The notes below the pieces were generated by a model. The model had not been told where the DNA came from. It saw only the letters and a program-made list of their open reading frames with translations, and did not search any database. This document shows positions 2,766-55,422 of a stretch of 64,000 nt of DNA, in pieces. The stretch lies in sequence record OP688485; one strand, given 5' to 3'. The translations under genes were made by a program, and so were the position numbers. Each line of letters begins with the position of its first letter. Position 1 is the stretch's first letter. Source of the stretch: Escherichia phage EP_H11.

Positions 2766-3025
2766 TTAAGATGGTGGAAGTAACTCAATTCAATACTGTG
2801 GTGGTTAAGTCTGTAAACTTTCTATCCAGCATAGTGTATTACCCGAATCTTGGAATCTACGAAGTGGTCAAGCATCCTATGGGTGAGGCTAAGGTGGTAA
2901 TGTCAACCGAATCTGGTCGCTTCGCCAGAGAAATGGCTAAGGAGATAGACTCCTTCTTTAATTCTGCGATGGATGACTTCCTTGAGCTAACAGGCTGGTA
3001 TAGTCTTCCAGAACCGCTCCTTTGA
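2762..3025 (+). CDS. hypothetical early protein (87 aa), apparent tandem paralog of 2526-2765
   Basis: ATGA start/stop overlap with upstream ORF. Shared motif pattern SIVYYPNLGIYEVV vs KIQYHPSKDQYCVI. Confidence 0.6.
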   Translation: MIKMVEVTQFNTVVVKSVNFLSSIVYYPNLGIYEVVKHPMGEAKVVMSTESGRFAREMAKEIDSFFNSAMDDFLELTGWYSLPEPLL

Positions 3026-3049
3026 GGCCTCCAAAGGCTGTTAAACTGT
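3014..3049 (+). promoter_or_regulatory. class I 36-nt element, copy 1
   Basis: CCGCTCCTTTGAGGCCTCCAAAGGCTGTTAAACTGT. Overlaps the last codons and TGA of the upstream ORF; 30 nt before ATG 3080. Confidence 0.65.
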
Positions 3050-3079
3050 GTGAGCTTATTTAACCTGACCGGAGAAATT

Positions 3080-5065
3080 ATGTCAGAACATGCTATTGAA
3101 ATCACAAGATTGCGTTACCCTGATAACGTTCGTCAGAACGTATCAATGTATCTCGGTGACCCGATTAACTACACCCATCCTCTCCAGGAAATAATCAATA
3201 ACGCAGAGGATGAGCTGCTTAATGGATATGCTAACCTGGTGCAGATCATTAACCGCGAAGCCTATAAGTTGGTTACCGATAACGGACGTGGTATTCCTAT
3301 CTACGCTGATCCGGAAGATCCAACTAAATCTATTCTGTTCTCCACTGTAACAGATCTGCATGCTGGCTCTAAGCTGGGTGATAACCGTGAAATCACTTCA
3401 GGTACTCACGGTGTAGGTAGCTCTGCTGTTAACGCAGTGTCCGAGAGATTCGTGGTGATCCGTCGAGTAATGCAGGGAGATAAGGCACACATCCCTATGG
3501 AGCCAGGTCAGTTCTATGTCCTCGGATTCCGTCGTGGTGTAATGGAAATTGATGGAGTGATCAACGATCTGAATGATCTTCGCGATGATGGCTTCCCAGA
3601 CGAAGTACTAGAGACGTTAATTGCTTCAGACTTCTCTACAGCAGTATTCATGGTTCCGGACGCCACTCTGTACCGCAGTATCTGGTCTGATGTGGACACA
3701 GTGCCTCTGAAGATCTCTCTGATTGGTCGCGACGCAACTATCACAGTTAATGGAGAAGCCTTACCTACCTGGGACTTCCGTCGTGATGTTGCAGAGAACG
3801 AGAAACTGTTCCTAGATACTACCGTCAAGTATGAGTTCTCGTTCAACGATCGTCTGACCTTCTCTGGTGAGTTGGGCTACTCAGATAAGAATATGTCCTA
3901 CTCCCATGTAGACATGATCAACTTGATCAATAACCCACATGGTGGTCTGCACGAGAAGCTGGTCACGAGAGCGCTCGGCGGTATGCTGAATAAAGTTAAC
4001 TCCGCTATCACTGTTGGTGATGCTAAGCTGGGATTGATCGTGTTCACTAACGTCTTCTCCAGCTACCGTACAGCATTCTCCTCTCAGACTAAGGAGAAGT
4101 TAACTGGCCTAGGTATGTCCTGGAGCGACTGGGAAATCATGGCTAAGAATAAGTTGATGCTGGATGATGAGCAAATCAACGATTACGACTATTATGGCGA
4201 GTACTTCTTCTACGAGAAGGAATGCCTGAGTCAGCTCACGTTTTACTTCAGCCTGGTCTACGAGAAGAATAAGCAGTTCTTCGATGCTCTGATTGCCAAG
4301 ATCCTGGCTTACAAAGCCAGCCTGAATAAACTCTCCAACATGGACTTCATTAAGTCTAAGCTGGTGATGGGTGATGATCACCGTAAGGCTGCTATGGATG
4401 GTGACATGGCTAAGATCTACGAATCTCCGTCTGATCGTTGGGATCTTCGTGAGCTCTTCATCACAGAAGGTCCGTCTGCATCTGGTAACATCATCAAGCT
4501 GCGTAACGAGTATCAGTCGGTGCTGCCGCTTCGTGGTAAGATGCGTAACTCAGCCTCCATGGATATTATGGAGTTCGTGAATAACCCAGAACTGCTGGCG
4601 ATCATTAACACTATCGGTTGCGGCATGGGTCAGATGTTTGACATCGATAAGGCACGTTACAGTAAGATCATCATAATGACAGACCTTGATGTGGATGGTC
4701 AGCACATCAGTAACCTTATCAGTTCAATCTTCCTTATCCATGCCCCAGAGCTGGTTAAGGATGGTCGTCTGTATAAACTTGAAGCTCCGTTCTATGTAGT
4801 TAAGAATGGTAAGAAGACCGAGTTCTACTACGCTGATGAGAAGGATAAGATCGACTTCGATAAGTGCTACGTTGAACGTCGTAAGGGGCTAGGGTCGTAT
4901 ACCGAGGAGGAAACCGAGCAGTTCATCATTAACTCGAAGACTCGCCGTCTTATCCAGGTAACCTATGATGATAATGAAGAGCATCTTGATGCCGCTCGTA
5001 AGTTGCTGTACTCATCTCGTGCTCGTCGCCAACTGTTAGAAGACTACGGTCTGTTTAAGGAGTAA
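3080..5065 (+). CDS. type II DNA topoisomerase, ATPase + Toprim subunit (GyrB-like; T4 gp39/gp60 equivalent)
   Basis: GHKL ATPase motifs NNAEDE, DNGRGIP, GTHGVGSSAVNA; Toprim EGPSA and IMTDLDVDGQHI. Start moved to ATG 3080 behind GGAG (track GTG 3050 lies inside the class I element). Confidence 0.85.
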   Translation: MSEHAIEITRLRYPDNVRQNVSMYLGDPINYTHPLQEIINNAEDELLNGYANLVQIINREAYKLVTDNGRGIPIYADPEDPTKSILFSTVTDLHAGSKLGDNREITSGTHGVGSSAVNAVSERFVVIRRVMQGDKAHIPMEPGQFYVLGFRRGVMEIDGVINDLNDLRDDGFPDEVLETLIASDFSTAVFMVPDATLYRSIWSDVDTVPLKISLIGRDATITVNGEALPTWDFRRDVAENEKLFLDTTVKYEFSFNDRLTFSGELGYSDKNMSYSHVDMINLINNPHGGLHEKLVTRALGGMLNKVNSAITVGDAKLGLIVFTNVFSSYRTAFSSQTKEKLTGLGMSWSDWEIMAKNKLMLDDEQINDYDYYGEYFFYEKECLSQLTFYFSLVYEKNKQFFDALIAKILAYKASLNKLSNMDFIKSKLVMGDDHRKAAMDGDMAKIYESPSDRWDLRELFITEGPSASGNIIKLRNEYQSVLPLRGKMRNSASMDIMEFVNNPELLAIINTIGCGMGQMFDIDKARYSKIIIMTDLDVDGQHISNLISSIFLIHAPELVKDGRLYKLEAPFYVVKNGKKTEFYYADEKDKIDFDKCYVERRKGLGSYTEEETEQFIINSKTRRLIQVTYDDNEEHLDAARKLLYSSRARRQLLEDYGLFKE

Positions 5066-5067
5066 TT

Positions 5068-54311: not shown

Positions 54312-54347
54312 CCGCCGTTTCTTACCCTCGAAAGGCTGTTAAATTGT
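54312..54347 (+). promoter_or_regulatory. class I 36-nt element, copy 15
   Basis: CCGCCGTTTCTTACCCTCGAAAGGCTGTTAAATTGT; 26 nt before ATG 54374. Confidence 0.6.
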
Positions 54348-54373
54348 TGCACCTCAACTAATAAGGATAACCG

Positions 54374-55087
54374 ATGTCTACTAAGATGATGCCACACCAT
54401 CTGGCACCGAATAAACTGTTTAACCGATTCCTGTCATATCATGACTCCTATCACTGCGCAATCGACATCGAGACTGAGTATCTCGATTTTAAAGAGCCTG
54501 GGGTAGTTCTGTCTGTAGGTATGGTAACGATCGGTCCAGAGCATTACTCCCACGTTTATTTTACTATTGATCGTGAAGAATCTCTGGCATTGGGTATGAA
54601 GTCCGACCCTAAAGTAGTGGAGTGGCTCAATACCCTCCCGAAACCCGTCCGTGATGCCGCATATGCTAATCCGGTATCTGTTGACGAAGCTCTGGATATC
54701 ATCGAGGATTACGTAGCTAAGGTATTACAGGACACTGGCTGCGAGATGTTGAACTTTATCGGTAACGCACCGGAGTTCGACCAAGGATTCCTGGATTGGT
54801 ACTTTAAGGCCAAAGGGCGTAAGACTCCGTTCCTTCACTGGATGAATCGTGACTTCCGCACTCTGGCTAGTCTGCAGCTAATCTCTTTCGATGAACGCCG
54901 CATGATTAAAGAAGAACTGCGTAGCCAGCACGAATCTATGTCTGACCACCATGCTCTGTTTGATGCTATGCTGGAAGCTAAGACCTGGGTTCGCACCATC
55001 AACCGAGTAAAAGAACTGCAGGATCTGGAGCATGAAGTAAACACCATGATCGCTCTGCAGGGTAATTCTGTTGAGGATGAAGAGTAA
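54374..55087 (+). CDS. DEDDh 3'-5' exonuclease (Rv2179c-like / DnaQ-fold)
   Basis: Exo I AIDIETE, Exo II NAPEFDQGFL, Exo III HHALFDA. Confidence 0.65.
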   Translation: MSTKMMPHHLAPNKLFNRFLSYHDSYHCAIDIETEYLDFKEPGVVLSVGMVTIGPEHYSHVYFTIDREESLALGMKSDPKVVEWLNTLPKPVRDAAYANPVSVDEALDIIEDYVAKVLQDTGCEMLNFIGNAPEFDQGFLDWYFKAKGRKTPFLHWMNRDFRTLASLQLISFDERRMIKEELRSQHESMSDHHALFDAMLEAKTWVRTINRVKELQDLEHEVNTMIALQGNSVEDEE

Positions 55088-55400
55088 GCTCTGCCGCGTA
55101 GTTAATATACGTACCAATCCTAATTATGATCTGTATGTTGGGAGAGGTACGTTATTCGGGAATAAGTGGAGCCATAAAGATTTACCTAACGCTATCAATG
55201 TAGGTTCCCGAACATTAGCTATCGCGAAATACCGACTATGGTTCCACCAGCAAGTAAAAGATGGCCATATAAGCATCTCATACCTGCGGACTCTGAAGGG
55301 TAAGACTCTGGGATGCTCCTGCTTACCATTACCATGTCATGCTCAAGTAATAGCTGACTTCGTTAATTCATTACCAGACGAAGACTCCGCTCTTTCGTAG
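55071..55400 (+). CDS. DUF4326 domain protein
   Basis: YDLYVGRGTLFGNKW...LKGKTLGCSCLPLPCHAQVIADFVN matches the DUF4326 pattern (YIGR..WGNPF...L.CWC.P..CH.dvl). Confidence 0.65.
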   Translation: MRMKSKLCRVVNIRTNPNYDLYVGRGTLFGNKWSHKDLPNAINVGSRTLAIAKYRLWFHQQVKDGHISISYLRTLKGKTLGCSCLPLPCHAQVIADFVNSLPDEDSALS

Positions 55401-55422
55401 CCTCCAAAGGCTGTTAAACTGT
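55387..55422 (+). promoter_or_regulatory. class I 36-nt element, copy 16
   Basis: CCGCTCTTTCGTAGCCTCCAAAGGCTGTTAAACTGT. Overlaps the last codons and TAG of the upstream ORF; 16 nt before ATG 55439. Confidence 0.65.

Follow-up and report, generated by a model that had tools for sequence, protein, structure and literature searches.

Layout of the non-structural arm

The 64,000-nucleotide (nt) stretch of Escherichia phage EP_H11 (sequence record OP688485; the whole stretch is called the window below) was analyzed for a repeated 36-nt intergenic element, class I, which an initial annotation had read as the likely middle-gene promoter of the phage. Bases 1-20000 of the window are 94% identical to Escherichia phage vB_EcoM_IME392 (MH719082.1, 116,460 bp), and besides IME392 none of the phage records closely matched the window. 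The plus strand of the window corresponds to the minus strand of IME392. The IME392 genome is divided into a non-structural arm of 73 kb and a structural arm of 43 kb. The window spans most of the long non-structural arm, with all genes on the plus strand from position 1 to ~59,650; beyond that position lies the end of the structural arm on the opposite strand. About 12 plus-strand terminators were found in the non-structural arm. The modification and nucleotide genes of the window encode a 5-hydroxymethyldeoxyuridine (5-hmdU) DNA kinase, a thymidylate-synthase-like protein, a dUTPase and a dCTP deaminase. Therefore, the phage DNA should carry hypermodified thymidines. Such modification in phages of the IME392 type has been discussed (PMC12686479).

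Sixteen class I elements in a fixed register

The initial annotation had described sixteen plus-strand copies of the pattern CCGCTCTTT-N10-AAAGGCTGTTAA-NN-TGT, and our search recovered every one of them (Table 1). The register is indeed fixed, with all 16 copies aligning without indels. Fifteen copies match the 36-nt pattern with at most three mismatches and the copy at 11284 with four, and no match was obtained in 100 dinucleotide-preserving shuffles. The 12-mer AAAGGCTGTTAA, with up to one mismatch allowed, occurs 17 times where 0.34 occurrences are expected. Sixteen of these are class I elements, and the remaining one forms the complementary arm of terminator 32908-32944. Within the window copies, columns 20-30 and 34-35 (counted from the first base of the element) are invariant, and TGnTAnnnT is present in 16 of 16, as had been claimed. 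At column 31 the copy at 11284 has C in the window and A in IME392.

The placement of the elements also agreed with the earlier description. In 15 copies the next start codon lies 16-74 nt after column 36. These start codons are preceded by Shine-Dalgarno sites, and the intergenic gaps that hold the elements are short (47-112 nt). The five overlaps with the end of an upstream gene translate as stated, giving the C-termini PLL*, PPV*, SLL*, AAV* and SALS*. Terminators lie directly upstream of the copies at 6363 and 7204. Terminator-like hairpins were also seen directly 3' of, or overlapping, class I elements, at 9592-9618, 15305-15332 and 32908-32944. The last of these belongs to copy 10 (32887), the exception noted before: its core serves as the 5' arm of a 17-bp terminator, which is kept in IME392, and no gene follows directly. 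Since the class I core is here a hairpin arm, RNA reading through from upstream would terminate, whereas an RNA beginning at the element would be unable to fold into this stem.

The genes behind class I had been described as mainly DNA-metabolism enzymes. This held for a large part of the copies, which precede genes for topoisomerase II subunits, methyltransferase-like and PIG-L-like proteins, the 5-hmdU DNA kinase, the thymidylate-synthase-like protein, an HD 5'-deoxynucleotidase, DNA polymerase A, NAD-dependent ligase, an exoribonuclease-like protein and dUTPase/dCTP deaminase. It did not hold for three to four copies (45005, 50200, 51597) that head blocks of small open reading frames (ORFs), nor for the copy at 22461, which heads a homing-endonuclease-like gene and the gene of a 483-amino acid (aa) protein without known function.

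Table 1. Positions of class I and class II elements and of RNA polymerase-related genes in the window
Feature	Position	Strand	Context
Class I 1	3014..3049	+	before topoisomerase II subunit genes 3080-6315; overlaps stop codon of ORF 2762-3025
Class I 2	6363..6398	+	after terminator 6321-6342; before methyltransferase-like gene
Class I 3	7204..7239	+	after terminator 7169-7190; before 302-aa ORF and BCCT transporter gene
Class I 4	9545..9580	+	overlaps BCCT stop codon; then terminator-like hairpin 9592-9618 and PIG-L-like gene
Class I 5	11284..11319	+	4 mismatches; before 359-aa ORF and 5-hmdU DNA kinase gene
Class I 6	13420..13455	+	before AAA_28 kinase-like and thymidylate-synthase-like genes; orthologous copies in L095, L096
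Class I 7	15276..15311	+	before HD 5'-deoxynucleotidase, primase-like and helicase genes; orthologous copies in L095, L096
Class I 8	18860..18895	+	TGG variant; before DNA polymerase A; orthologous copies in L095, L096
Class I 9	22461..22496	+	before homing-endonuclease-like ORF 22571-23482 and 483-aa ORF 23475-24926
Class I 10	32887..32922	+	core is 5' arm of 17-bp terminator 32908-32944
Class I 11	38048..38083	+	before NAD-dependent DNA ligase gene
Class I 12	45005..45040	+	16 nt before small-ORF block
Class I 13	50200..50235	+	before 119-aa and 56-aa ORFs, then 529-nt ORF-free stretch
Class I 14	51597..51632	+	before small ORFs and NADAR-domain gene
Class I 15	54312..54347	+	before 3'-5' exoribonuclease-like gene
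Class I 16	55387..55422	+	overlaps stop codon; before small ORFs, dUTPase and dCTP deaminase genes
Class II	2224..2298	+	AT-rich inverted repeat, TAAAGCCCGTTCTTTTGG, GC hairpin; after terminator 2177-2198
Class II	24980..25055	+	after terminator 24932-24949
Class II, diverged	25340..25405 (start approximate)	+	CAGCCCGTTCACTTGG and hairpin; heads operon with beta' C-terminal half
Class II	28804..28880	+	heads operon of 218-aa protein and beta' N-terminal half
Class II	33019..33095	+	heads ~10 small ORFs
Class II	36517..36595	+	heads small ORFs and PolX-like gene
RNA polymerase beta' C-terminal half	26582..28096	+	Rpb1 domains 3-5; candidate reader enzyme
RNA polymerase beta' N-terminal half	29676..31244	+	Rpb1 domains 1-2
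218-aa protein	29004..29660	+	possible specificity subunit

Class I elements are conserved at orthologous sites and are probably promoters

A motif search in IME392 revealed 25 copies of class I, all on the strand of the non-structural arm, and zero copies in the 43-kb structural arm. Five of them cluster at the very start of the non-structural arm, one directly before its first gene, and no sigma70-type site was found upstream of this first-gene copy. In 16 orthologous pairs of window and IME392 elements, 1.4% of positions differ within the conserved columns and 4.5% within the free columns, compared with 8.9% among the 24 flanking bases. A protein search with the 483-aa ORF led to two syntenic metagenomic relatives with 79% and 58% identity in this protein (contigs L095 and L096). 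In both, class I elements occupy the corresponding intergenic positions, ahead of the genes for the AAA_28 protein, the HD-phosphohydrolase and DNA polymerase. In these copies AAAGGCTGTTAAnnTG(T/G) is intact, whereas the 5' box has decayed to GGCTCTTT, AATCTTTTT or nothing, and one orthologous site of L096 lacks the 5' half and retains the 3' box. When the 16 copies of the window were turned into a sequence model, it recovered all eight copies of L095 and L096 (E 4e-7 to 6e-3).

When the class I consensus was compared by blastn with 50,697 phage records, multiple copies were obtained only in IME392. The exact motif is thus confined to IME392-like phages among these records. The pattern CGCNNNTT-N10-AAAGGCTGTTAA gave one single match in IMG/VR and 82 single matches in metagenomes, one copy each and without multi-copy relatives; these were read as chance. 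No description of the promoters of this phage group was found in the accessible literature.

Class I thus has the marks of a promoter-type DNA signal, as the initial annotation had proposed: the elements have the orientation of the genes, are intergenic, often follow a terminator closely, show purifying selection and are kept at orthologous sites. The conservation at orthologous sites together with the terminators directly upstream of several copies therefore argues for promoter behavior, and class I elements are very probably promoters. They would serve the long non-structural arm of an IME392-like phage with hypermodified thymidines. The essential part would be the invariant 3' box AAAGGCTGTTAA-nn-TG(T/G), and the faster-evolving 5' box CCGCTCTTT would be an auxiliary upstream element.

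Action at the RNA level and an operator site were weighed against these data. Class I might be a nut-like antitermination or processing site, where an N-like phage factor makes passing polymerases resist the terminators of the arm; class II, a second element family (CGUUCUUUU and a GC hairpin), would then be a boxA-boxB pair. In lambda nut sites and rrn leaders, boxA is bound by NusB/NusE. Columns 2-10 of class I (CGCUCUUU-U/A) are identical at 8 of 9 positions to the boxA consensus CGCUCUUUA. Such an element would find ~12 plus-strand terminators in the arm, and the terminator-like hairpins after class I at 9592 and 15305 and overlapping it at 32908 would also suit it, as would the plus-strand distribution of CGCTCTT, with 9 of 11 occurrences lying within class I. 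Like the boxA consensus, the 5' box reads CGCTCTTT(T/A), and in class II a boxA-like run is followed by a hairpin. However, several class I copies directly follow terminators, so that hardly any transcript would extend to them, and the first copy of the arm has no upstream promoter, a placement that differs from nut sites and rrn boxA. The boxA-like 5' box is also the least conserved part in the relatives, whereas the 3' box is invariant, and class I has no boxB-like hairpin. Neither a stable nor a covarying fold was obtained: fold z-scores average about -0.7 and range from +0.9 to -1.6 apart from one copy, the only one of 16 below -2, and there was no Rfam match in the window. An RNA-level role is therefore improbable.

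Together with AAAGGC, the CCGCTCTTT box makes up an imperfect inverted repeat, with GC-x-CTTT and AAAGGC on either side of a 10-nt spacer. Base pairing between the boxes is possible to 90% over all copies, with a single bulged base, and the copy at 18860 contains a perfect 7-bp repeat. Class I could thus be an operator or structural DNA site that binds a dimeric phage regulator, or that extrudes a hairpin like the early promoters of phage N4, with the true promoter located elsewhere. The intergenic gaps of 47-112 nt hold no other candidate promoter, though, and the invariant block extends well past the repeat, through TGTTAA-nn-TG. The L096 site that lost the 5' half and kept the 3' box does not fit either, and the ~10-nt loop and fold energies no better than those of shuffles speak against extrusion. 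We regard this explanation as slightly less probable even than a role in RNA. The inverted repeat could still bind a dimeric regulator on top of the promoter, which leaves the promoter reading in place. A class I hairpin in RNA or DNA was rejected as a candidate feature, as it folds no better than shuffles and shows no covariation.

A second element family shares the class I core

Repeat analysis yielded a second family, class II, whose sites were counted in the window (six copies: 2224, 24980, ~25340, 28804, 33019 and 36517). Class II consists of an AT-rich inverted repeat, followed by TAAAGCCCGTTCTTTTGG and a GC-rich hairpin with compensatory changes. Directly upstream of the copies at 2224, 24980 and 33019 terminators were found, and class II heads the operons of both halves of an RNA polymerase (RNAP) beta' subunit as well as small-ORF blocks. 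Neither class occurs before the late genes of the structural arm.

On the plus strand the generic pattern A[AG][GC]C[TC]GTT-N4-T[GA][TG] picks exactly the 16 class I and six class II elements; its extra matches are one in a coding region and one in a terminator arm. Both classes therefore have AAAG, GTT and TG at identical spacing. The common core is AAAG-N3-GTT-N4-TG, with AAAGCCCGTTCTTTTGG as the class II version, and the class I 3' box would be one version of this lineage-specific core. Class II has C at the would-be -11 position, where sigma70 needs A. In L096 all four class II copies read GCGAGTT in place of GCCCGTT in the window, which is a lineage-wide consensus shift that moved as a block. 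Among other sigma factors, none of sigma32, sigma54 and sigmaE fitted class II when their consensus sequences were compared with it by eye.

The GC hairpins start at columns 34-39 in six of six class II copies of the window, in four of four in L096 and in most copies of a related Acinetobacter family (family B, below). The simplest reason for this fixed position would be that it marks the 5' end of the RNA, with a start at TG(G/T). Such a start would put TAAnnT at about -6 to -1.

Looser counterparts in Ab1-TPeters and RP13

Acinetobacter phage Ab1-TPeters (110 kb) has the same two-arm layout. Its DNA polymerase is 33% identical to that of the window and its beta' halves 39% and 49%. The commonest repeated 12-mers of this genome, AAAAGCTGTTTA, AAACCTGTTAAG and CCTGTTTCTTAA, resolve to ~20 intergenic sites co-oriented with the genes, AAA(A/G)(G/C)CTGTT-N4/5-TGT. 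Strict matches number 12 on the gene strand and 0 on the other strand, with ~0.1 expected by our own estimate from base composition. Family A of these sites reads CTCAAAATTGAG..CA-AAAGCTGTT-TAAAG-TGT, with TG one base too far from TAAAGT for an extended -10 element. Family B reads (C/G)CTGT(T/C)TCTTAA-N10-AAACCTGTT-N4-TGT and is followed by a GC hairpin. About five of its nine copies lack the would-be -11 A, and several Ab1-TPeters sites lack TAnnnT. CTCTT and TGTT are 16 nt apart in Ab1-TPeters and 17 nt apart in class I.

The piece of Ralstonia phage RP13 that was analyzed (19.5 kb, LC554890.1 96742-116280) contains four intergenic copies of ACGAC(G/T)CTAT-N9/10-AGACCTTGTA, at 701, 4534, 12464 and 16155. 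This motif is bipartite like class I (CGCTAT-N9/10-AGACCTTGTA) and has no TAnnnT hexamer. It is probably the counterpart promoter of the RP13 lineage.

A split beta' subunit without a recognizable beta

The initial annotation had considered the phage's own multisubunit RNAP as one of two possible enzymes. Of such an enzyme only a part was detectable: a beta' encoded in two pieces, and no beta. When E. coli RpoC was the query of iterative searches, the window, IME392, L096, Ab1-TPeters and the RP13 fragment each gave the two halves of beta', and a fragment of RHph_Y65 gave one full-length beta' gene. Searches of all ORFs of the window, IME392 and Ab1-TPeters for beta with phmmer and jackhmmer (E. 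coli RpoB and the YerA41 beta as queries) were empty, and these queries detected beta only in the more distant YerA41. The complete genomes of IME392 and Ab1-TPeters are therefore without a recognizable beta. Pfam and PHROGs also gave no beta among the large ORFs without known function. A second beta' set was not found, each genome giving one match to the beta' N-terminal half. As to a virion polymerase, six structural-arm proteins, the endolysin and its neighbor contained no RNAP domain, and the all-ORF searches with RpoB and RpoC gave nothing there. Either the phage polymerase has a beta that diverged beyond recognition or it borrows the beta of the host; no paper on beta-less phage polymerases was found. 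The 483-aa ORF was dismissed as a beta, its faint Rpb2_3 match (E 0.089) being noise; 28 representatives of its family gave no RNAP signal in Pfam or against PDB sequences.

The 218-aa protein is kept in five lineages (IME392, L096, Ab1-TPeters, RHph_Y65 and RP13). Its gene lies directly upstream of the gene for the beta' N-terminal half in IME392, L096 and Ab1-TPeters, one small ORF away from the beta' gene in RHph_Y65 and near the gene for the C-terminal half in RP13. It may be a specificity subunit. At its C-terminus, G-T-x3-A-x2-A-R has a helix-turn-helix-like look. A profile search against PDB returned nothing for this protein, and a single-sequence AlphaFold model was unusable (predicted local distance difference test score, pLDDT, of 40). 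In Ab1-TPeters the early arm opens with the counterpart of the 230-aa ORF (28105-28797), which in the window follows the beta' C-terminal half.

Which polymerase reads class I

Neither the invariant AAAGGC box nor the CCGCTCTTT box is a sigma70 element, which bears out the earlier view that a phage-encoded reader is needed. The core would be recognized by a phage-encoded specificity determinant, either the split-beta' enzyme or a phage factor on the host polymerase, and RNA synthesis would begin at, or a few bases after, TGT. We give a phage-specific reader with a start near TGT an even chance. The other reading, the main model of the initial annotation, is that class I is a sigma70 extended -10 promoter (TG-n-TAAnnT) without a -35 element, starting 6-8 nt after column 34, where host RNAP is redirected in the manner of T4 MotA/AsiA by a phage activator bound to CCGCTCTTT and/or AAAGGC. 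This is a possible but less likely account, and sigma70 using TAAnnT as its -10 hexamer is the less likely reader.

The initial annotation had taken TGnTAnnnT as the mark of an extended -10 element. This argument was weakened in several ways. Class II shares the core spacing with class I, has C for the -11 A and cannot be a sigma70 -10 element; the counterparts in Ab1-TPeters and RP13 often lack TAnnnT and with it the -11 A or the -7 T; the TG of family A is displaced by 1 nt; and the hairpins begin at columns 34-39. The sigma70 feature is thus not kept across the element family, with class II, Ab1-TPeters families A and B and RP13 all deviating. In class I itself, columns 35-36 (GT) and GGAGG at columns 38-42 show more conservation than sigma70 would require. 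AAAGGC abuts TG at about -22 to -17, in the spacer covered by sigma and beta', which is an awkward site for an activator, and hypermodified thymidines at -12 and -7 would probably disturb the sigma70 pockets.

Several points nevertheless weigh against a phage-specific reader and in favor of sigma70. The textbook extended -10 element (TG-n-TAAnnT) fits class I in this phage and its close relatives: it occurs in all 16 window copies and, as TG-T-TAAnnT, in 40 of the 42 distinct class I copies of four genomes. The free columns 32-33 fall on the least conserved sigma70 positions (the weak -9/-8), and a purine lies 6-7 nt after column 34, A or G being common at columns 40-41. With no canonical sigma70 promoters in the arm, class I is the only sigma70-compatible signal there, and extended -10 elements without a -35 are an established theme in phage middle and late promoters. 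The phage reader is plausible, yet the first genes need an enzyme at time zero. No virion RNAP or beta was found, and the time-zero enzyme, most simply the host sigma70 holoenzyme, would therefore start the programme. The first gene of the arm is one of those headed by class I. Judging from phiKZ and AR9, one would expect a non-virion phage polymerase to act on the late genes, which have neither class I nor class II. The likeness of Ab1-TPeters and RP13 to class I is partial and was judged by eye; the class I model was sub-significant on Ab1-TPeters (E 0.4-7), its sites making up about half of the top matches. The promoter activity, start site and enzyme of class I are predictions from the sequence.

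The 'middle' timing of class I is tentative, since even the gene that opens the arm has a class I copy ahead of it. The clustering of class I at the arm start and the three to four copies that head small-ORF blocks also speak against this timing. On the other side, class II stands ahead of the beta' genes and small-ORF blocks, and class I ahead of genes for replication and nucleotide metabolism; the position of the beta' genes would suit a later role for class I. No late-promoter motif was found in the structural-arm intergenic regions of IME392 and Ab1-TPeters.

We also counted sigma70-type consensus sites in bases 1-60000 on both strands and found 72 where dinucleotide-preserving shuffles gave ~114, so that they are ~35% rarer. 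Per third of the window, sites of the -35/-10 type numbered 21, 23 and 28, compared with expected values of 34.6±5.1, 35.6±6.4 and 43.7±6.7. None of the canonical -35/-10 sites in the window lies before a gene. This depletion suggests selection against host-type promoters.

Comparison with known phage promoters

T4 middle promoters combine a MotA box with a sigma70 -10 element and depend on sigma appropriation by AsiA. Class I resembles them in that a phage-specific upstream box replaces the -35 element, replication and nucleotide-metabolism genes follow, a -10-like TAnnnT has an upstream TG, and the phage DNA is hypermodified. In contrast to the MotA box TGCTTtA centered at -30, AAAGGC of class I abuts TG and CCGCTCTTT lies at about -41 to -33; the MotA box (a/t)(a/t)(a/t)TGCTTtA centered at -30 is not present in class I. 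Unlike in T4, the class I core is also used by a class without a -10 element, class II. A Pfam scan of ~45 ORFs, covering those of at least ~200 aa and, of the small ones, mainly those near the beta' genes, returned no match to MotA or AsiA.

Promoters of phage multisubunit RNAPs are known as early, middle and late classes in phiKZ, and in AR9 as early promoters and late promoters with AACA-N6-TW. As in these phages, split homologues of the large subunits of cellular RNAP are encoded here, and the conserved class I block would be centered near -10 if transcription starts at TGT. Class I and II occur only on the non-structural arm, and the structural-arm intergenic regions share no motif. Similarly, in a phage multisubunit RNAP system a conserved motif was reported before non-structural operons and none was detectable before structural genes (PMC7598289). 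Promoter recognition in AR9 needs uracil (PMC5449584, PMC9209446), and class I recognition may likewise depend on non-canonical thymidine analogues. Unlike phiKZ and AR9, the phage studied here has a genome of 116 kb, which is not jumbo, with one beta' set and no detectable beta or virion polymerase, and its class I motif is bipartite, much longer and not AT-rich. Moreover, the TGTT of class I belongs to the non-template strand; in AR9 it is the template strand that is read, as 3'-UUGU-5'.

With T7-type promoters of single-subunit RNAPs, class I shares a long, near-invariant sequence repeated before each operon, terminator-promoter pairs, and conservation that may extend into the initially transcribed bases (GGAGG). 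Unlike them, it consists of two boxes around a free spacer of 10 nt. The IME392 annotation includes no gene for a single-subunit polymerase, and the scanned ORFs showed none either.

Class I, with high probability a set of promoters, would be a phage-specific promoter class in an unusually interesting transcription system. The 25 class I sites of IME392 and the six class II sites of the window provide a testable promoter map for 'genetically unique' phages with hypermodified thymidines. If this reading is right, a small, non-jumbo phage lineage would have its own promoter code, recognizable in its main features in phages of E. coli, Acinetobacter and Ralstonia and tied to a phage RNAP known by its beta' only, which could be a phage-host hybrid or contain an unrecognizable beta. 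A bolder version, which we consider rather unlikely, is a previously undescribed transcription system with a hybrid polymerase of the phage split beta' and a small conserved partner with host beta, alpha and omega. The hybrid would read AAAG-N3-GTT-N4-TG, start at TG(T/G) and recognize the core thymidines in hypermodified form, which would confine it to phage DNA. Class I and II would then be two temporal regulons, in IME392-like phages and their Acinetobacter, Ralstonia and Rhizobium relatives. If the reader protein were also identified, the invariant 17-nt box and its class II sibling would be compact parts for orthogonal expression.

Other features of the window

The tRNA scan of the window was empty. 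At 50833-51361, between a class I operon and the next genes, 529 nt without an ORF are partly GC-rich and have many potential stems. Rfam and tRNA scans gave no match there, and the stretch could represent a non-coding RNA, or the remains of an intron or of a gene. The ORF 32054-32560, which shares an operon with the beta' N-terminal half and RNase H, had weak matches to Pfam Acb1 (anti-CBASS 2H phosphoesterase) and to the PHROG 'RNA ligase'. Within the thymidine-hypermodification island, a full-length BCCT (betaine/carnitine/choline) transporter gene was found at 8174-9556 (Pfam E 1.6e-91). This is unusual phage cargo, and the transporter may import an amine for DNA modification.

Three paralogous ORFs with a faint GIY-YIG signal were observed, at 22571-23482 and 57401-58051 in the window and at 44090-44746 in IME392. 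The copy at 22571, which lies a short way 3' of the class I element at 22461, is missing from that site in IME392. Conversely, the IME392 copy, located upstream of the topoisomerase gene between the class II and class I elements of IME392, is missing from the window. The three paralogues behave like homing endonuclease genes.

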